UHGV virus genome: UHGV-0048736
Strand: one strand, 5' to 3'
Origin: a virus
DNA: 10,511 nt
Of this stretch, positions 1,231 through 8,803 are shown piece by piece. The position numbers and the translations under genes were made by a program. A model generated the notes under the pieces. That model ran no database searches. It was given only the letters and a program-made list of their open reading frames with translations, and was not told the origin of the DNA. Position 1 is the stretch's first letter; every line of letters starts with the position of its first letter.

Positions 1231-1773
1231 TTACTCGCCTTTCTTCTGTAGCAACTTTTCCGGTACGTTTCCGGTTGTTTCTTTCAAGTAATCAGCCAGT
1301 ATCTGTGGGAGGTTGTCGGCAACTCTGGCACTGGCATTACAGGCTTTAACCACTTCCCTTTTAAGCCTATCCAGCATGGCGGGGGTAATCTGTGGGAAGC
1401 TCCTTTGCATAGTAAGCGGGAGGCTGTCCATGATTGATGAAATCTGACTCGCCAGCTTTGAAAGCGCGTACAGGCAAAACTCAGTATCAATCACGTCACC
1501 GCGATCGCGCTCGTTTTTAAGTTCCTGCGCCTCCGCCTGTGCTGTCAGTAATCTGATCCTGACTCGTAAGAGTTCATCATCATCAATATCGCCTTTGTCG
1601 TTTGTAAGCTGGCTAATTGCATTGTTAACCCTATTGTCTATCACGCTGGCAACATCGTAAAACGCCTCACGGCCTTTACGTTCAACGGGAGTCACTCCCC
1701 ACTTGTCGAACGCTGTCGCACTTACACGGCAGCTTTTCGCCATGTTTTTTTTGTTCATCAGGTGCGATTTCAT
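1231..1773 (-). CDS. Terminase small subunit, lambda Nu1-like
   Basis: 180 aa (lambda Nu1 is 181 aa). LLTAQAEAQELKNERDRGDVIDTEFCLYALSKLASQISSIMDSLPLTMQRSFP matches the recalled Nu1 segment LTRAQADAQELKNARDSAEVVETAFCTFVLSRIAGEIASILDGLPLSVQRRFP. N-terminal region (KK..A......W...G.P...GKG.E..YD.A.VI) is consistent with the Nu1 DNA-binding domain. True start may be one of the in-frame ATGs at 1758 or 1743; no clear Shine-Dalgarno at any of them. Confidence 0.85.
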   Translation of the reverse strand: MKSHLMNKKNMAKSCRVSATAFDKWGVTPVERKGREAFYDVASVIDNRVNNAISQLTNDKGDIDDDELLRVRIRLLTAQAEAQELKNERDRGDVIDTEFCLYALSKLASQISSIMDSLPLTMQRSFPQITPAMLDRLKREVVKACNASARVADNLPQILADYLKETTGNVPEKLLQKKGE

Positions 1774-1775
1774 TA

Positions 1776-1811
1776 ATACACCAACTTAATTACTGCTTCA
1801 GGTTGGTGTAT
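1776..1811. promoter_or_regulatory. Perfect 10-bp inverted repeat ATACACCAAC-N16-GTTGGTGTAT abutting the Nu1-like start codon
   Basis: Arms at 1776-1785 and 1802-1811 are exact reverse complements; located 3 to 38 nt upstream of the start at 1773, between the right cosN copy and the gene. Confidence 0.5.
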
Positions 1812-1866
1812 TGTTTGCATCTTTCCCTTTTCATTCATAAAGATAGAGCAAACAACAAAACCACCA

Positions 1867-1875
1867 CCCCCCCCC
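1867..1875. repeat. Homopolymeric C9 tract (G9 on the coding strand) in the Nu1-like upstream region
   Basis: ccaccaccccccccctg read directly; lies between the right cosN copy and the Nu1-like start. Confidence 0.6.
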
Positions 1876-1896
1876 TGAAAAGGCTCATAAATAGCG

Positions 1897-1948
1897 AAAA
1901 ACCGCGAGGTCGCCGCCCCGTAACGGGTCCATATGCCGGAAAGGACCC
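1897..1948 (-). other. Second cosN copy, inverted orientation, collinear with the Nu1-like gene
   Basis: Positions 1897-1933 are the exact reverse complement of 1025-1061 (37/37). cosN GGGCGGCGACCT is on the minus strand at 1907-1918, followed on the minus strand by CGCTATTTATGA as in lambda and then divergent sequence. GGGTCC...GGACCC hairpin conserved at 1926-1948 with a different loop. Confidence 0.75.
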
Positions 1949-1950
1949 AT

Positions 1951-1974
1951 AAAAAAAAGCCGGATTTCTCCGGC
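1951..1974 (-). terminator. Rho-independent terminator after the 137-aa gene
   Basis: GCCGGA-tttc-TCCGGC hairpin (1959-1974) preceded on the plus strand by A8 (1951-1958), giving hairpin plus U-run on the minus transcript; 7 nt past the stop at 1981. Confidence 0.7.
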
Positions 1975-1980
1975 CTTGTC

Positions 1981-2394
1981 TCAGATGGTTTTCAGTATGC
2001 GATCGATGTCGCCGTCATCGCCCTGGTTTCTGCCATCGTATGCCATGCCAGCTGATACGGCTTGCGGGCTGTGCATGTCCATAAAGTTTTCAAAGGCTGC
2101 GGTAAGTTCCGGCGCAACCTTCGGACGTTCCTGCTCTATGGTCATGCTAAGGATGCTTTTAGCCGTACCAACATCGATACAAGGCACGTTTGCCATTGCA
2201 CGTAACAGCGGCTGATAGTCGCCAGATTCATCAAGCGCCATAATCGCATCAGCGCGCGGCTTGTCCTGCTCTTCCAGTTTGTTAAGTTGATATATGGCCT
2301 CGTAGGTTGATAACCCTCTGTCAGCCATTGCCCGCGCTTCGGCTTTAAATTTACTCGCCAGCGGTAGCGTCATGATGCTTTCATTCGTTGCCAT
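1981..2394 (-). CDS. Hypothetical head-module protein, 137 aa
   Basis: ORF with strong Shine-Dalgarno (AGGGGGAACG before ATG), 12 nt after the D-like gene; acidic C-terminal region. Function not assignable from sequence. Confidence 0.6.
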   Translation of the reverse strand: MATNESIMTLPLASKFKAEARAMADRGLSTYEAIYQLNKLEEQDKPRADAIMALDESGDYQPLLRAMANVPCIDVGTAKSILSMTIEQERPKVAPELTAAFENFMDMHSPQAVSAGMAYDGRNQGDDGDIDRILKTI

Positions 2395-2406
2395 CGTTCC
2401 CCCTGC

Positions 2407-2742
2407 TTATCGGGCCAGCGGCTGAACGGATACGCCAGAACCCGCAAAGGCGGCGCATTTTTTCGCATCGGTGTCGACGCTCTCAGGCCAGTTAACGGCG
2501 GCAATATTGAATATCCCCGTCTTGTAACACTGTGCTGATTTCTGCTTTGACGTGTCCACAGGATACGAAGTCAGATAAACAGCCTTGCCAGATTCCTGAC
2601 CATCCCACGGCTTAAACTCGCCATTGTCCGCCAGCATCAGCGGGGTAAATTCCTGAATAACGCCAGCATCAGCGGCAAAATGTACCAGCGTCGTGGCGAC
2701 CTGCTGACTGCCTGCAAATAACTCAATGTATGGAGTGTCCAT
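2407..2742 (-). CDS. Head decoration protein, lambda gpD-like
   Basis: 111 aa (gpD is 110 aa). TPLMLADNGEFKPWDG versus recalled gpD TPLMLDTSSRKLVAWDG; CYKTGIF..NWPE...AKKCAAFAG versus FYKSGTF..LWPE...TKKRTAFAG. GGGGG Shine-Dalgarno. Confidence 0.85.
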   Translation of the reverse strand: MDTPYIELFAGSQQVATTLVHFAADAGVIQEFTPLMLADNGEFKPWDGQESGKAVYLTSYPVDTSKQKSAQCYKTGIFNIAAVNWPESVDTDAKKCAAFAGSGVSVQPLAR

Positions 2743-2753
2743 AGAATCCCCCG

Positions 2754-3809
2754 TTAAGCAATTTTGACGGTAACAAATTTGCGAATATCTGCCGGAACCG
2801 GCTGCGGTGCGCTGTGCGTCTGCACGTACTCAATCGCCGGATCGCCGTCCTCAATCCAGTTTTTCGGGTAAAACATGTTTTGCGTTGCGCCCGTTCTTAC
2901 TGCGTCCTGATCCATAATCGCACCATAGGCCACCAGCCCTTTATTGTTGGTGTTGCCCAGGACAAGCAAATCAGGCTCAAGGAAATATTTTTCTGTGCCG
3001 TCGCTGTCGGCGTATTTGCCGGAATAGACGATAAGGGCAATATCGCCCAGATAGCCTTTAAAGCTCACCACTTCGCCCAGGTTTTTACAGGCCAGCTCTA
3101 CGGCGGACTCTGAACCACGGGAAAGATCGTACAGCTCACGGAATTTTTTAAAGCTGCGTAACGTGCGCCATACCTCAGCGCCCATAATCATGACGTTTGC
3201 GGGGCAACCAGCCTGATCAGCATAAAGCTCGATGTCATAGATTGGATCGTGTGTTTCCTTATCTGCCTCTGACCACTTTTTACCCGGTCCCTGTCTGGCG
3301 ATGTTTTTACTTGGGATCTTCCAGTCTATTTCATAGCGTTCTATGCCTTCGCCCTCAATGATGTTTTTTCCGGTCGTTATCGCATTCACCGCCAGCCATT
3401 CCACGCGCGCTTTAATGGCGTTTATCTGGCGGCGCATGTTGCCAGTAATCAGGCGCATACGGCGGTAGGTAGGGTCGTTAAGCTGTGCTGGATCTTCTCC
3501 AGCCATGCGCATGATGGTTTTTGTTGGATCGATTTCGTGCTTTGGCTTCATGTAGCCAGGTTTGATTGTGCTGGTTTCGTACCCTTTATCGCGCTGAACC
3601 TGGCTACCCACCATAGGCGAACAAAACGCCGACATGGTGACTTCTTCAATGTCCAGGGTATCCAGCATGATGTTTTGCGTGTTGAATGTCGCCACGTTCG
3701 GGAAAAACAGCGTAGTAAACAGAGGGCTGAATTTAAAATCCGCAATATCCCCGCGATTCAGGTACATGAAAAGCTGGTTAGTGTTAAGTGCCGTTGCTTT
3801 GCCTGCCAT
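2754..3809 (-). CDS. Major capsid protein, lambda gpE-like
   Basis: 351 aa (gpE is 341 aa). FKFSPLFTTLFFP versus gpE FKFDPLFLRLFF; KPGYMKPKHEI versus TPGYVKPKHEV; DPTYRRMRLI versus DPAYRRRRII; YPKNWIEDGDPA versus YPKNWVTTGDPA; C-terminal FVTVKIA versus FVSVQLA. GGGGGTG Shine-Dalgarno. Confidence 0.9.
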   Translation of the reverse strand: MAGKATALNTNQLFMYLNRGDIADFKFSPLFTTLFFPNVATFNTQNIMLDTLDIEEVTMSAFCSPMVGSQVQRDKGYETSTIKPGYMKPKHEIDPTKTIMRMAGEDPAQLNDPTYRRMRLITGNMRRQINAIKARVEWLAVNAITTGKNIIEGEGIERYEIDWKIPSKNIARQGPGKKWSEADKETHDPIYDIELYADQAGCPANVMIMGAEVWRTLRSFKKFRELYDLSRGSESAVELACKNLGEVVSFKGYLGDIALIVYSGKYADSDGTEKYFLEPDLLVLGNTNNKGLVAYGAIMDQDAVRTGATQNMFYPKNWIEDGDPAIEYVQTHSAPQPVPADIRKFVTVKIA

Positions 3810-5107: not shown

Positions 5108-5154
5108 TTTTATTTTTACCCCCTCGTTTAAAAAGTTTTGAGTTGTGCCTCCCC

Positions 5155-5383
5155 TTGTCTACCTTATCAACCTTACTGGCCACCATGCCAGTAATGGCGC
5201 GGCTTTCAGTGGGGTAGAGTGCTTTTATCCACTATCTACCCCGTATCTACCTCCCTGTCTGATTCAGGTAAAATCAGGTAGAGAGGGTAGATAGTAGGTA
5301 GACAGTAAAAAAAGGCTGTCTACCCAAGTTAATGTACTGAATTAAATGTATTTTTCTTTACTCTGGTAGACAGGGTAGACAGC
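5155..5383. repeat. Iteron array with AT-rich spacer: putative replication origin
   Basis: About ten copies of GGTAGA(C/T/G)AG in both orientations (5155-5164, 5213-5221, 5232-5240, 5243-5251, 5277-5285, 5286-5294, 5297-5305, 5316-5325, 5365-5373, 5374-5382). AT-rich stretch at 5326-5360. Directly downstream of the primase/helicase gene. Confidence 0.65.
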
Positions 5384-5395
5384 CATTGCAACAAA

Positions 5396-7144
5396 TTATA
5401 AAAACGCGTCGCAATCGTCTGTTGTTATTGCGTTAGTCTGCGTTACTCCTTTAACTTTCCGCGTAATATATTCATGTCCGTAAACTTTCGCGGCTGGCTT
5501 CATAGCCTTGCCAAAGTCATTTACGTTTAGCGGTTTGCTCCTGCCTGCGTACGCCATAAACGCCAGATAGACGCGGTAAAGGCTGTTTCTGGTCGTGTAC
5601 TTCACTGAATCGCCACCGCCGCCCATCATCAGGCCGCGTGCTTCCTCCAGAAAATTCAGGAACTGGCAAAACTCAATAACCGGATCCGTCTGTTGCTTTA
5701 TTGCCAGTGCTTCATCACCGTCACGCTGTTCAATGAGTAAAGCCCGTGCCTTTTCAGGGTCGGCAAAGTTCGCCAGCAAGCGGCGGATAATGACAGGGAT
5801 TTCAGCCGCGATCTTTTCCGGTAGCTCCCTGTCTTTTTCTGCCTCGCTTACGATGTTATCGAACCGGAATATCACCCGACGACGTGCCACACCTCCGGCC
5901 CGTTCGGTGAATATCATCGGATTGTTATTGGTTGCCAGCACCACCGCCCTGATTACCGCCGTAAAACGCTTTTCATATTTCGGGTTAATTTCCACGGGGT
6001 CGCCGCCCGTGATTTTCTTGATGCCCGTTCCTTCGCCTGTATATTTCGGCTGGTCTGCCAGGACGATAAGACGACTCCCGACAACCTGCGCACGCCCACC
6101 AGCATCATCAAGCGATGTCATTTCAGCGCTTACCGTGTTTTGTTTCCCTGCCAGAAGGCTGGCTATGTGTGTGAATGTACTTTTACCGCTCCCGCCGTCT
6201 CCGGTGGCCTCAATAAACATCTGCCAGTCGTACCGGTTCGCCATAATCATGTACAGCGCGGCACATATACGCATCATCTTGCGCGGGTCTTTTCCGGCTG
6301 CGTGCTCAAGCCATTTATGAAAGTTTGGCGCGTTATCGCGGATGTTCTCCCCGGGTGCTGGTGGCGTGTACTCAATGCCGTTGTGCGTGGTGATCCAGTT
6401 CTCCGGCGTGTGCGGGGAAAATTCCCCCGTTTTCAGGTCAAGCGCACCATTGGCGAACGGCAGCAAATCGCCGGACGGCTCGCCCATTGGTTCGGCAATA
6501 ACTTTTAACGCTTCCACGGCGTTATTGATTACGCGCTTGCTGAAAGTGGCCCTGTGCTCTGAATAGATCGCCACCATTTCGCGGCTCAGCTCCATTGTGC
6601 TGACCGGACACCATACCCCGCCGCGCCATACGTGAACGATTTCACTTTCAGGATGCACACAAACGCCATCAAAGCGCTCGGCAAGCAGCTGCGCACGCTC
6701 ACTGTCTGCCATTTGTGCCAGTTGCGTATTTTTCTGCTCCGGCATGGTAAGCCCTGCGGCAATATTTTCACGCTCAGCATTCAGATAGCGCCGCCAGTTT
6801 TCACACTTCTGGACGTGCATTCCTTCGGGGTAAAAATTTGCGTCCTGAATATCTGCCGCCGCCAGCTTCTGACCAATCTTTTTGGTCTCCACCAAATCCA
6901 GTTCTCCGGCCTGGTACAGCCTTACGCGCTTTTTCCCATCCGGAACAATTTTCAGTGCATCAAGTTCGGCAAGCTGATTTGGCCCAAGCCACACAGGCGG
7001 CACATTATCGCCGGATGCGGGGCCATCCTGCTCCTGCCATTGTTTCGCGTGCGACCAGGCATCACTACCCGCGAAAATAATTACCTCTGTGTCTTTGTGT
7101 TTTATTCCGCGTGGCTGTTTTTTTACGTTCGGTGCCAGTTTCAT
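5396..7144 (-). CDS. Replication protein: primase / SF3 (D5- or P4-alpha-type) helicase
   Basis: 582 aa. Walker A EATGDGGSGKSTF, downstream Walker B-like hydrophobic stretch (RLIVLADQP) and C-terminal region typical of P4-family primase/helicase; N-terminal roughly 250 aa is primase-like. ATGA overlap with the upstream 99-aa gene; CAGGGG Shine-Dalgarno. Confidence 0.9.
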   Translation of the reverse strand: MKLAPNVKKQPRGIKHKDTEVIIFAGSDAWSHAKQWQEQDGPASGDNVPPVWLGPNQLAELDALKIVPDGKKRVRLYQAGELDLVETKKIGQKLAAADIQDANFYPEGMHVQKCENWRRYLNAERENIAAGLTMPEQKNTQLAQMADSERAQLLAERFDGVCVHPESEIVHVWRGGVWCPVSTMELSREMVAIYSEHRATFSKRVINNAVEALKVIAEPMGEPSGDLLPFANGALDLKTGEFSPHTPENWITTHNGIEYTPPAPGENIRDNAPNFHKWLEHAAGKDPRKMMRICAALYMIMANRYDWQMFIEATGDGGSGKSTFTHIASLLAGKQNTVSAEMTSLDDAGGRAQVVGSRLIVLADQPKYTGEGTGIKKITGGDPVEINPKYEKRFTAVIRAVVLATNNNPMIFTERAGGVARRRVIFRFDNIVSEAEKDRELPEKIAAEIPVIIRRLLANFADPEKARALLIEQRDGDEALAIKQQTDPVIEFCQFLNFLEEARGLMMGGGGDSVKYTTRNSLYRVYLAFMAYAGRSKPLNVNDFGKAMKPAAKVYGHEYITRKVKGVTQTNAITTDDCDAFL

Positions 7145-7440
7145 TTTTTACCCCTGAATACGTTAAGCATCTTTTTTATTTCCTGAATATTGGCGCGTGC
7201 TTTCTCCCTGCTGGTTGGTTTACTGCGGGGCGCTGCCTGTACCAGAGAAAAATCACGCCGAAACTGATAAACAGGCATCACGCAATCATATTCGTAGCCT
7301 TCACGACGGTAGGTGATGCGCCGTTCTGCCACGCCTTTAATCGTTACCATGCCGCCATATTTATCGCGGTAAATATCGCCGTTCATAAATTCAGGACGAG
7401 CGGGGCCGCTGGCAGTAACGCCAGAATTTTTATTTTTCAT
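7141..7440 (-). CDS. Hypothetical protein, 99 aa, coupled to the primase gene
   Basis: ORF whose stop overlaps the primase start (ATGA); basic protein, function unknown. Confidence 0.6.
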   Translation of the reverse strand: MKNKNSGVTASGPARPEFMNGDIYRDKYGGMVTIKGVAERRITYRREGYEYDCVMPVYQFRRDFSLVQAAPRSKPTSREKARANIQEIKKMLNVFRGKK

Positions 7441-7445
7441 GTTTT

Positions 7446-7673
7446 TTATTCTCCGGTGTGCTGCGCTTTATTATTCTCGTGAATTGCCATCACTGTATTT
7501 AATTCATTAATAACAGGCGTTAATAGCGTACGCACGGCAGAAAACATCATTGAATCAGATTCATCGCCACTTTCCGGCACATCAATTAACTTAAGTAGTA
7601 ATGCGTCCATTTCCTTTGCGCGGATTAATGCGTTTTCAGAATGAACAAGAACATCAAAGGGTATTTTATGCAT
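7446..7673 (-). CDS. Hypothetical protein, 75 aa
   Basis: ORF with CAGGGGGTGAG Shine-Dalgarno; acidic small protein; 5-nt gap to the next gene. Confidence 0.55.
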   Translation of the reverse strand: MHKIPFDVLVHSENALIRAKEMDALLLKLIDVPESGDESDSMMFSAVRTLLTPVINELNTVMAIHENNKAQHTGE

Positions 7674-7869
7674 GACTCACCCCCTGGCGAATACGGGCAG
7701 CGAATACCATCACGCAGCCATCAGGAGATTGCTGACGCGCTTCCTGTTCGCTGGTGGCCTCAATGGTAATCACGCGCGGTTGTGCAGTGCTCAGGGTGAT
7801 AAAACGCCAGATGTATTTATTCAGGTTGTGCGAGTCCCGCCCTTGCGGGTGTGTGGTATGATTTCTCAT
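7666..7869 (-). CDS. Hypothetical small protein, 67 aa, first gene of the leftward early operon (possibly Icd-like; weak)
   Basis: Taken from the internal ATG at 7869 (GAGG Shine-Dalgarno 6-9 nt upstream) of a spurious 305-aa ORF. The position upstream of the primase mirrors the P4 left operon. The YIWRF...EQEARQ pattern is reminiscent of Icd-like proteins, but that is from memory only. Confidence 0.45.
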   Translation of the reverse strand: MRNHTTHPQGRDSHNLNKYIWRFITLSTAQPRVITIEATSEQEARQQSPDGCVMVFAARIRQGVSHA

Positions 7870-7965
7870 AGCTACCTCGATACTTTCGCTATCGTTGGTG
7901 GTTAGAAGCCCGGTTAGTGTTAGCGCACTGCCGGGTTTCGTCGTTTCTGCACCTTGCGCCAACAA

Positions 7966-8020
7966 GGTGTTGAACACCAATTTAAACCCAGGTGTTAAAC
8001 ACGTCAAGTGTTGAACACTT
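7966..8020. promoter_or_regulatory. Three operator-like palindromes (GTGTT-N-AACAC) in the divergent control region
   Basis: GGTGTT-G-AACACC (7966-7978), GTGTT-A-AACAC (7992-8002), AAGTGTT-G-AACACTT (8006-8020). A possible sigma70 promoter (TTGAAC -35 inside site 3, CATACT -10) faces the plus-strand regulator gene. Confidence 0.6.
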
Positions 8021-8068
8021 ATTTTTTTTCCTGCATACTGCATTTGTTTTTTATGAGGGGTACACCAC

Positions 8069-8248
8069 ATGGCGACAAAAGCAGTAAACGCAAAATCACA
8101 AACCGTTGCGGCAAGGGTTCCGCATGAAGTTATGAACAATGTTGAGGCGGTAAAAATGCCTGGCGAAAGTACGGGGCAATTTGTTACTGCGGCATTAAAA
8201 CGAGAAGTTGAATATCGCCAGCGGCGCAAGGCCAAAGAACCAGAGTAA
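8069..8248 (+). CDS. Small putative DNA-binding regulator, 59 aa (possibly ribbon-helix-helix)
   Basis: Not in the ORF track because it is under 60 aa. ATG at 8069 with GAGGGG Shine-Dalgarno 8 nt upstream; stop TAA at 8246-8248. Translation MATKAVNAKSQTVAARVPHEVMNNVEAVKMPGESTGQFVTAALKREVEYRQRRKAKEPE has a strand-helix-helix-like pattern and a basic tail. Sits immediately downstream of the operator triplet. Confidence 0.6.
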   Translation: MATKAVNAKSQTVAARVPHEVMNNVEAVKMPGESTGQFVTAALKREVEYRQRRKAKEPE

Positions 8249-8290
8249 TCACCATCAGCGCCGTGGTGTAAGGTATTACGGCGCATTGCT

Positions 8291-8479
8291 ATGCAGGACA
8301 ACACAATGACCGATAAAGAATTGACCAAAACATTATCACCGGCACGGAAAAGACGGCGCAGAAAGATAGAGCATGAATCAGAAAGATTCGCGCCATGTGC
8401 TTTTGCCCTTGAGCAATTCCTTAAAGAGTACAGGGAAAAGCGCTCATTGCAGGTATGGCAACGAACTGAACCAGACTGA
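8291..8479 (+). CDS. Hypothetical small protein (62 aa, or 57 aa from the ATG at 8306)
   Basis: ORF downstream of the small regulator gene and upstream of the plus-strand terminator. An AGGA Shine-Dalgarno-like motif favours the 8306 start. Arg-rich, no recognisable motif. Confidence 0.3.
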   Translation: MQDNTMTDKELTKTLSPARKRRRRKIEHESERFAPCAFALEQFLKEYREKRSLQVWQRTEPD

Positions 8480-8546
8480 TTGCATTGCCCACCAGCCGCA
8501 AATGTGGCATTGTTGGTGATGCGTTCAAGTTTAGTGTGTATCCATT

Positions 8547-8573
8547 GGCGACCGCCCCCGGTCGCCTTTGTTT
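8547..8573 (+). terminator. Rho-independent terminator of the rightward regulatory transcript
   Basis: GGCGACC-gccccc-GGTCGCC hairpin (8547-8566) followed by TTTGTTTT. Confidence 0.65.
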
Positions 8574-8593
8574 TATATGTCATATGCTCCCCT

Positions 8594-8803
8594 TTACGCT
8601 GCCTTACCTGAATTAATGCGATCCCGGCTTTTAACCCATTCCATAACCTCGGACAGCAGCCAACCTACAGAACGCCCACCAAGATTACGGCGAGACGGAA
8701 AGCTCCCTTTTTTCTCCAGTTCGTAGCGTGTAGTGCGACACACTCCAGTTAACTTACGACATTCATCCTCACGGATTACGCGATCTTCATTTATTTCACG
8801 CAT
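8594..8803 (-). CDS. alpA: AlpA-family phage transcriptional regulator
   Basis: 69 aa from the internal ATG at 8803 (the 98-aa ORF in the track starts at a GTG inside AT-rich promoter-like sequence). C-terminal half ...RRNLGGRSVGWLLSEVMEWVKSR fits the AlpA-family pattern as I recall it. Located next to the integrase as in P4-like elements and PICIs. Confidence 0.7.
   Translation of the reverse strand: MREINEDRVIREDECRKLTGVCRTTRYELEKKGSFPSRRNLGGRSVGWLLSEVMEWVKSRDRINSGKAA

Follow-up and report, generated by a model that had tools for sequence, protein, structure and literature searches.

Small genes in front of the primase gene

The DNA analysed here, UHGV virus genome UHGV-0048736 (10,511 nucleotides in all, referred to below as the window), is a phage satellite of Escherichia coli of the phage-inducible chromosomal island (PICI) type, roughly 10 kb in length and situated between cspD and clpS. 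Our analysis addressed three small genes that lie on its minus strand and run into the gene for a P4-family primase. The first in the direction of transcription is a kil/icd-like cistron of 67 aa (7666-7869, NCBIfam model NF033153), which we call icd or gene 1; the second, orf75, encodes 75 aa (7446-7673) and was taken from the list of open reading frames (ORFs) and from the Prokaryotic Genome Annotation Pipeline (PGAP); and the third encodes a 99-aa protein with a DUF4222 domain (7141-7440, PF13973). A first-pass annotation, made from the sequence alone, had described how these ORFs are joined, and the junctions were exactly as it noted: icd and orf75 overlap by 8 nt (7666-7673), orf75 and the DUF4222 gene are separated by a 5-nt gap (7441-7445), and the stop codon of the DUF4222 gene overlaps the start codon of the primase gene in an ATGA (7141-7144). 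The icd ATG is preceded by GAGG and a 5-nt spacer, and the Shine-Dalgarno (SD) sequence of each chained start lies within the 3' end of the preceding gene. PGAP called the same three coding sequences at the 100%-identical locus of E. coli IHE3034.

For comparison, related loci were collected from IMG/VR (80) and from Edwardsiella (1), and more than 100 further loci were added later through a pattern search; a scan of genome contigs with the Icd alignment returned only two loci, one of them useful (that of Edwardsiella), and the working set was taken from IMG/VR instead. Synteny was counted in the 76 islands with both ends mappable, out of the 80 related islands examined, while stop codons in the long frame described below were counted in 66 distinct upstream sequences, and promoters and facing ORFs in 115 distinct sequences. 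In related islands, the ratio of nonsynonymous to synonymous polymorphism (pN/pS) was 0.08 for the Icd domain (codons 19-62), 0.30 for orf75 and 0.43 for the DUF4222 gene, indicating that all three are coding and that orf75 and the DUF4222 gene are fast-evolving. The icd gene stood first in all 76 islands, and a DUF4222 gene adjoined the primase start in nearly all of them. The idea that these ORFs should recur in otherwise syntenic islands was borne out for icd and the DUF4222 gene, which were jointly present in about 76 of the 80 related islands, but not for orf75, whose family was missing from about 46%. The three small ORFs are genuine genes and form the front of the island's replication operon.

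Gene 1 belongs to the Icd/Kil family

The product of gene 1 matched NF033153 with 67.1 bits (cutoff 25) over model positions 1-48. Its Icd domain comprises residues 19-62 and is preceded by the N-terminal leader MRNHTTHPQGRDSHNLNK. BLASTP aligned the protein with P1 Icd at 33% identity over 52 aa (E 1e-7), while the pairwise comparison with the corresponding P4 ORF gave an E value of only 0.12. The same model was also matched by P1 Icd itself (52.6 bits) and by the P4 ORF named 'cI gene product' (73.9 bits, in its C-terminal 48 residues). This P4 ORF belongs to a frame of 214 codons (L087:8168-8812), which overlaps orf88 (alpA-like) at the end of that gene, has an Ash-like stretch inside it and ends in 65 residues that open with a Met and correspond to Kil. 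The frame fits the description of the nested eta/kil pair in the passage of PMC10111431 that summarises it; according to that passage, which cites Forti 1999, Kil is lethal to cells, coupling ties eta to the alpA homologue, and translation of eta prevents termination. Where the same paper writes icd, it for the most part means the integration site in the isocitrate dehydrogenase gene. Judged by these matches, gene 1 is clearly a homologue of P1 Icd and P4 Kil, and its product is predicted to be a small toxic inhibitor of host cell division. Icd-like genes have already been recorded as common in satellites. The PHROG label 'transcriptional repressor' (phrog_6196/1743) was not accepted as the function of gene 1, as it was most likely inherited from the obsolete product name of the P4 cI ORF.

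These results changed several points of the first-pass annotation, which held that none of the three genes could be assigned from sequence and credited the 67-aa product with a weak Icd-like flavour. Two of the three can be named from curated models that already exist (NF033153 with 67 bits and PF13973 with 85.6 bits), and the Icd match is strong. The annotation listed icd among the genes of P4; icd is the P1 name, and the P4 counterpart is kil/eta. It rightly recognised the position as that of the small early genes of P4, in which epsilon is preceded, with an 8-nt overlap, by an ORF that has the same Icd-like domain (73.9 bits). Its proposal that the three genes sense a helper or modulate the host was sustained in one part, since gene 1 falls in a host-modulating family (P1 Icd, P4 Kil), and found no support in the other, helper sensing, for any of the three. 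Similarly, of the families it proposed for profile comparison, Icd was recovered for gene 1, and no similarity to epsilon or Psu was detected. In the Pfam, PHROG and NCBIfam searches, none of the three small proteins matched Psu, Sid, Delta or the like. PADLOC models of defence systems matched none of them either and gave only a marginal hit of the primase to mad3 (E 0.0019). A sequence search of the PDB returned nothing for Icd or the DUF4222 protein and only noise for orf75, and a tblastn search of deposited phage genomes revealed no DUF4222 relative of the window's subtype and a single record for Icd.

A long open frame ends in icd

The 67-aa ORF is the last part of an open frame of 305 codons (7666-8583, minus strand), which was found from the ORF list and the sequence and ends in the Icd domain; icd is thus the internal-start form (ATG at 7869) of a nested pair. 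The ATG of this eta-like frame, at 8583, lies 10 nt past the alpA stop codon and has AGGGGAG as its SD sequence. The frame runs antisense across a gene of the ylcI/ynfO family (8069-8248) and orf62 (8291-8479), passes through intergenic promoters and then enters icd. In 51 of the 66 distinct sequences, the 200 codons that precede the icd ATG in frame had no stop codon, whereas the other two frames contained an average of about 12 stops each over the same 200 codons and were never stop-free. The conservation of the open frame held with ylcI-like alleles of 33-100% identity and also in islands without a ylcI-like gene. In addition, where the tblastn alignment to alpA was full-length, the first ATG of the long frame was located 12-15 nt past the last sense codon of alpA.

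A Pfam search of the 305-codon product revealed no domain, and its composition is rich in Cys, Ser, Thr and Arg, of low complexity and non-protein-like; we therefore read the eta-like frame as a transit frame. By analogy with what has been proposed for P4 eta, it is probably kept open for the passage of ribosomes rather than for a folded protein, and its placement would allow translational coupling to alpA. The possibility that the long ORF encodes a Bro-N or other domain protein was dropped for want of a Pfam match, and the ORF was treated as a translated leader. A 'BRO-N pseudogene' annotated by PGAP (8244-8499) falls within the eta-like frame.

A predicted antisense RNA covers the icd ribosome-binding site

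On the plus strand, a cis-antisense small RNA of about 75-80 nt was predicted at 7870-7950 from its similarity to SymR of Rfam, from RNAalifold and from a strand test. The predicted RNA is complementary to the 5' untranslated region of icd, including the SD sequence, and its start at 7870 directly abuts the icd start codon (7867-7869). The fold opens with a 5' stem-loop that presents the anti-SD CCUC and, after a single-stranded UUGGUGGUUAGA, continues with a GC-rich terminator hairpin and a U-rich tail. The Rfam SymR model (RF01809) aligned with its full length to plus-strand positions 7870-7942, beginning right after the icd start codon, with 33.3 bits (E 0.0032), which falls short of the gathering score of 61 bits.

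Several lines of evidence supported this prediction. First, a stretch of DNA that begins about 47 nt before the icd ATG and reaches about codon 17 is near-invariant, synonymous sites included, and the invariance extends to Edwardsiella, where the Icd protein is only 53% identical; pS was 0.026 in icd codons 1-18 and 0.157 in codons 19-62, a difference of about 6-fold. Second, the terminator hairpin showed compensatory changes in 6 of its 10 pairs, and 98.1% of cells were paired, compared with 92.0% in shuffles (none of 500 was as good) and 29-57% when the partners were slid. Third, the structure belongs to the plus strand, on which 618 of 630 pairs were canonical, with 94 G·U pairs, compared with 526 of 630 and 2 G·U pairs on the minus strand. 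The mean minimum free energy was -34.6 kcal/mol for the plus strand and -22.3 kcal/mol for the minus strand, with the plus strand more stable in 30 of 30 sequences, and the U-rich tract after the hairpin was present only on the plus strand in all sequence types examined.

A putative extended -10 promoter for this RNA, TGgTATGAT (7854-7862, plus strand), lies inside icd codons 3-6. Its hexamer occupies 7857-7862 in codons 3-5, 7 nt before 7870. Among the 115 distinct sequences, the hexamer was TATGAT in 103, TATAAT in 9, and TATAGT and TATTAT in 1 each, with one further sequence out of register; T1, A2 and T6 were kept in all four variants, and TGG preceded the hexamer in 109 of the 115. In some of these variants, His4 becomes Tyr or Asn, while the third base of codon 4, a synonymous site that forms position 2 of the -10, never varied. 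Two bases between the -10 and the RNA start that encode icd residue 2 were freely variable (Arg or Leu).

A covariance model built from 30 antisense sequences (R1) scored 95.8 bits on the window. Among the six sources searched with it, K-12 SymR was matched exactly at its annotated start, although weakly (12.7 bits, E ~0.05). The promoter and antisense RNA were present in 1296 of 5426 complete E. coli genomes (~24%), in up to 6 copies per genome and almost always under an Icd-like coding sequence; in nearly all of the 115 distinct copies, the facing ORF starts with M(R/L)N(H/Y)TTHPQGRD and carries the Icd-like motif. In about 12 of these copies, an inserted Ash domain (PF10554) separates the leader from the Icd domain, and the longer Ash forms contain C4 and isrK RNAs within the Ash region, as in P4. 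The same leader and antisense RNA with Ash inserted before Icd were observed in L085 (3515-4054; E. coli 11A20CPO008, same cspD site) and in L034, and these two islands thus carry the antisense module together with a P4-type immunity RNA module. The window itself has no Ash domain and gave no match to C4 or isrK even at E<=1, although the same Rfam search found both RNAs in P4 and L085, and the antisense RNA is its only recognisable immunity RNA. From the sequence evidence as a whole, a SymR-like cis-antisense RNA very probably exists at icd, whereas its membership of the SymR family is not established, and icd appears to be held in check by a small antisense RNA that was previously uncatalogued.

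Two further observations were made around this RNA. An invariant GC hairpin (CCCGC-CCTT-GCGGG, 7836-7849) lies just upstream of the antisense -10, in icd codons 8-12 (PQGRD) and outside the predicted RNA; it could be a protein-binding site, an mRNA structure or the outcome of a protein-level constraint. In phage P1, model R1 gave a weak match (L084 4731-4788, minus strand, 14.8 bits) near the expected end of the RNA that the annotated PaskilA promoter (start 4916) would produce antisense to the 5' end of kilA, which is probably a mere terminator resemblance.

A predicted internal promoter, operator-like sites and a divergent unit

A promoter scan revealed a sigma-70 promoter for the icd operon, TTGACG-17-TAAATT (7979-8007, minus strand), which is located within the long frame some 100 nt ahead of the icd ATG and whose -35 and spacing are conserved across islands with different operators and surroundings. 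A repeat search found three operator-like palindromes of the form GTGTT[G/A]AACAC (GTGTTNAACAC sites; 7967-7977, 7992-8002 and 8008-8018). They flank the -35, spacer and -10/+1 of this promoter and sit between back-to-back divergent promoters. The divergent plus-strand unit comprises the gene of the YlcI/YnfO family (59 aa, 8069-8248, NF041551 with 59.7 bits), orf62 (8291-8479) after it and, at its end, a strong terminator detected by a terminator scan (8547-8575); it has its own conserved -10 (TATACT/CATACT) about 30 nt upstream of the ylcI-like ATG. In other islands, the palindromes are replaced by different repeats of the GTG-N5-CAC type, and the sequence of the operator sites tracks the allele of the adjacent ylcI-like gene and not that of alpA. 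This covariation makes the YlcI-like protein a candidate operator-binding repressor, and the ylcI-like gene, orf62 and the terminator together look like an immunity/repressor module.

Comparison with known systems

The left operon of P4 (orf88/vis - eta/kil with PLE and CI RNA - epsilon - orf151 - orf106 - alpha) has the same order and logic as that of the window. In both, an alpA-family gene is followed by an adjoining long ORF that ends in an Icd-like domain, a short form is nested within the long one (Kil of 65 aa in P4, 67 aa in the window), a promoter lies inside the long ORF (PLE inside eta in P4; 8007-7979, predicted in silico, in the window), an 8-nt overlap leads into the next small gene (epsilon in P4, orf75 in the window), and the small genes are chained to a P4-family primase. 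They differ in that the immunity RNA of P4 is the CI RNA (Rfam C4), which lies on the sense strand, is processed and has its seqA/isrK-like target within the Ash domain, whereas the window has an opposite-strand RNA over the kil/icd ribosome-binding site, together with the divergent ylcI-orf62 unit and its operators. The downstream small genes of the window are also unrelated to epsilon, orf151 and orf106 of P4.

A similar arrangement exists in P1 immI (c4 RNA - icd - ant1/ant2), where a homologous Icd is the first cistron, is joined to the next by an ATGA overlap and is blocked at its ribosome-binding site by a small RNA; in the P1 annotation, icd is described as 'apparently required for expression of ant'. 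In P1, however, C4 comes from the same strand, farther upstream, and uses short pairings between loop and target, whereas the window RNA is fully complementary and in cis on the other strand, and the downstream genes encode an antirepressor in P1 and replication functions in the window. The geometry of the RNA matches that of the K-12 SymE/SymR pair, in which SymR represses symE translation from a promoter inside symE (PMC1891008): in each case an RNA of this size (~77 nt for SymR, RF01809) is antisense to the translation start of a toxic or presumptively toxic protein and has its promoter inside that ORF. The two RNAs share two hairpins, a similar spacer (UUGUGAUUAG vs. UUGGUGGUUAG) and a similar loop in the second hairpin (GUGUUGGCGCAC vs. 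GUGUUAGCGCAC). The targets are unrelated, SymE having an AbrB fold, and SymE is LexA-controlled and stand-alone, whereas icd heads an operon.

Finally, the ECOR61 system (Silas et al., bioRxiv 2023) is a cluster of six prophage genes, among them one for a primase and one for an Icd-like protein, and the latter is the likely effector of the cell death that the prophage encodes (bioRxiv 10.1101/2023.04.06.535777). The linkage to a primase, the cluster of small genes and the prophage-like element are shared with the window, while the ECOR61 protein has a long N-terminal extension, which from its description is comparable to the leader-Ash-Icd fusions of L085 and sets it apart from the short form of the window. 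The regulatory layer as a whole, with its nested long ORF, internal promoter and operators, and antisense RNA, was overlooked by the first-pass annotation. What appears to be new at the sequence level is a P4-like nested eta/kil gate in a PICI with an uncatalogued SymR-like cis-antisense RNA instead of CI/C4, a mosaic accessory slot and a fixed DUF4222-primase pair, the last two of which are described below.

A model for the control of the replication operon

Gram-negative PICIs are common and move virulence and defence genes, and how they are silenced and switched on is poorly understood. AlpA is known in PICI control, and C4/isrK immunity RNAs have been noted in some islands only. Taking together the homologies, the synteny, the RNA structure and its strand, the promoter conservation and the open frame, all of which were established in silico, we infer expression of the antisense RNA and a mechanism of repression. 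The explanation that we lean towards is a P4-like operon gate, in which icd would be a translational gate, the cis-antisense RNA would take the place of the CI/C4 RNA, and the eta-like frame would provide a bypass. The operator and antisense-pairing steps draw on sequence evidence, and the later steps on analogy with P4, P1 immI and SymR.

According to this model, icd would be the first cistron transcribed from the internal, constitutive-type promoter (8007-7979), and the downstream cistrons would be chained to it by stop and start codons that overlap or lie close together. While the island is at rest, transcription from the internal promoter would be lowered by the operators, to which the YlcI-like protein probably binds, and the antisense RNA would pair with the icd SD sequence on leaky transcripts, which would for this reason remain untranslated. 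By analogy with P4 and P1, the untranslated icd mRNA would be terminated or degraded before orf75, the DUF4222 gene and the primase gene, so that the coupled downstream genes, including the primase gene, would be off and toxic Kil/Icd would not be made. Upon induction, ribosomes on a transcript from the alpA side would follow the eta-like frame continuously, over the antisense target and on into icd, and the block would be bypassed; Kil/Icd, the accessory gene, the DUF4222 protein and the primase would then be switched on together. Kil/Icd would arrest division while the primase replicates the island from the presumed iteron origin (5151-5387), with orf75 acting on a helper or host partner and the DUF4222 protein assisting the primase.

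If this model is true, the Icd-like gene, annotated as 'accessory', would be the control point of the replication operon, and islands without a P4-type CI RNA would have their missing immunity element in an antisense RNA that about 24% of E. coli genomes carry. The model also offers a reason why a 300-codon frame stays open across two opposite-strand genes, and it links DUF4222 to primase function. A more far-reaching proposal, which we put forward tentatively and would not yet lean towards, is that a SymR-related family of uncatalogued antisense RNAs is the immunity determinant of many PICI-type satellites, where it would replace CI/C4, gate Kil/Icd and the replication operon, and be overridden by ribosomes moving along the ~300-codon frame. 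In that case, the RNA might also act in trans, giving cross-immunity between co-resident satellites, because the target and the antisense core are nucleotide-invariant between otherwise divergent islands, and it might double as a type I toxin-antitoxin/abortive-infection switch.

Several points weigh against the gate model. The antisense RNA, its start site and its terminator are predictions; the antisense promoter has no recognisable -35 and relies on its extended -10; and the 5' stem-loop, being almost invariant, lends no support through covariation. Since the eta-like frame, the SD sequence and the Kil N terminus are also encoded in the invariant block, part of the synonymous constraint could have other causes. 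The similarity to SymR is below threshold (33 vs. 61 bits), and the reciprocal match is weak (12.7 bits, E ~0.05). The long ORF is of low complexity and overlaps two plus-strand genes, its translation being suggested by its openness and by the P4 analogy. In addition, the covariation of the operators with the ylcI allele may be explained by linkage alone, and the targets that the model supposes for orf75 and the DUF4222 protein are conjectural.

Three other explanations were weighed against the gate model. The most serious, although rather unlikely, is that the Icd-like gene and the antisense RNA are mainly a type I toxin-antitoxin/abortive-infection module triggered by phage, with replication control being secondary. 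The ECOR61 cluster points in this direction, as its six prophage genes kill upon expression of phage orf24 and loss of the Icd-like gene abolishes death; so do the SymE/SymR geometry, with the antisense RNA over the translation start and its promoter inside the ORF, and the very wide distribution of the module, often in multiple copies per genome. However, the gene is invariably the first of the replication operon and chained to the genes downstream, which is the gate position in P1 and P4, and the PADLOC models gave no matches; ECOR61 moreover required all six genes, and its Icd-like protein, with the long N-terminal extension, has a different form. The toxin-antitoxin and operon-gate roles are not mutually exclusive.

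Somewhat less probable still is that no functional antisense RNA exists, the block being an SD-sequestering leader hairpin, a protein-binding site or a readthrough terminator, with the small genes encoding three independent accessory proteins. The sense leader can indeed pair ACC with GGU around a CGAUA/UAUCG hairpin and thereby partly occlude the SD sequence, the 5' stem is invariant, the block is multiply coding, and the promoter scan found no two-hexamer plus-strand promoter here. This explanation is difficult to reconcile with the strand asymmetry (94 vs. 2 G·U pairs, 618 vs. 526 canonical pairs, and a plus-strand fold better by ~12 kcal/mol in 30 of 30 sequences), with the U-rich tail that follows the hairpin on the plus strand only, with the TAnnnT kept by all -10 variants despite amino-acid changes, and with the full-length alignment of the Rfam SymR model from just after the start codon. 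Lastly, the view that the primase mRNA has an untranslated leader in which at least one of the three ORFs is open merely by chance, as might be thought of orf75 with its lack of a curated family and its very few relatives, is scarcely credible given the purifying selection on all three (pN/pS 0.08, 0.30 and 0.43), their SD sequences, the confident AlphaFold2 (AF2) models of orf75 and of the DUF4222 barrel core, the strong family matches for two of the three and the PGAP calls for all three.

orf75 and the DUF4222 protein

The product of orf75 matched only phrog_2196, a family of unknown function, and gave no match in Pfam, NCBIfam or PADLOC. Its AF2 model (predicted local distance difference test, pLDDT, 86) is an acidic two-helix hairpin with helices at residues 6-30 and 38-72, for which a fold search returned only generic hairpins, and its relatives formed 8 representative clusters among 1.84 billion proteins. 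The orf75 family occurred in 41 of the 76 islands, and other small ORFs took its place in those from which it was missing; only 9 of the 76 have orf75 alone in the slot between icd and the DUF4222 gene, as in the window. In size, this slot runs from one small gene up to roughly 1.3 kb, and its mosaic content falls into about 5 families without annotation. A Pfam search with the remaining families of the slot gave no match; the single hit of that search was Phage_ASH, on the leader-Ash-Icd fusion ORF of L085. Merging the orf75 family (C1) with two of them (C9 and C14) was rejected, as hhalign probabilities of 39-46% were considered insufficient. An hhalign comparison of the orf75 alignment with P4 epsilon gave a probability of 0.4%, and comparisons of orf75 and of the DUF4222 protein with P4 orf106 were both negative. 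The most likely role of the orf75 product is to bind to and inhibit a protein factor of the helper or the host, and the mosaic slot of uncharacterised small proteins would be a good hunting ground for inhibitors of this kind.

The DUF4222 protein matched PF13973 over residues 16-68 with 85.6 bits (threshold 27) and phrog_285 with an E value of 1.3e-30. Its model shows an SH3/Tudor/KOW-like barrel at residues 23-68 (pLDDT 83-90) followed by a C-terminal helix; this fold is too common to allow a functional call, and the model suggests at most an adaptor to primase or RNA polymerase. Across the islands, the DUF4222 genes at the primase start were 33-100% identical, and their constant position is what would be expected of an obligate small partner of the primase. 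The only characterised member of the DUF4222 family that we found is RgdR of enterohaemorrhagic E. coli (EHEC) O157:H7, a small prophage-encoded protein that activates the Ler/type III secretion system cascade. The two proteins have this domain in common. RgdR is reported as a Ler-cascade activator with an RGD motif and a regulator of type III secretion, whereas the protein of the window is tied to the primase.

The island and its neighbouring features

The chain ends in the gene of the P4-family primase/helicase (582 aa, 5396-7144, minus strand; TIGR01613, D5_N, DUF5906 and Pox_D5). Adjoining its stop codon on the downstream side, a repeat search revealed a dense array at 5151-5387 of at least 10 iterons of the GGTAGACAG type in both orientations, which is probably the replication origin of the island served by the operon. 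A sub-threshold Rfam match to mir-3927 (5220-5317) was discarded as spurious, since it corresponds to this inverted-repeat iteron array. At the other end, alpA occupies 8594-8803 on the minus strand (PF05930, 58.8 bits; PGAP coordinates). The Rfam int-alpA RNA (RF02996) was found in one related island (L026 62-128), and the window gave no match to it even at E<=1.

Over the 1.1 kb around the three small genes, the window shows 100% identity with chromosomal sequence of E. coli IHE3034, O18 and many other extraintestinal pathogenic E. coli (ExPEC) strains. In IHE3034, the island of about 10 kb contains genes for an integrase, AlpA, the P4-family primase, a single-stranded DNA-binding protein (SSB), a lambda-type major capsid protein and decoration protein, and a small terminase (TerS), a content that gives it the layout of a Gram-negative PICI-type phage satellite. 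In this respect, it resembles the capsid-gene-bearing '11capE' PICIs (PMC10111431) rather than the complete capsid-forming PICIs. No portal or protease gene is annotated within the island. In the window, the lambda-E-like major capsid protein, the D-like decoration protein and the small terminase are encoded at 1231-3809. Outside the window, clpA, which adjoins the island in IHE3034 (L001 1-1650), is annotated as frameshifted.

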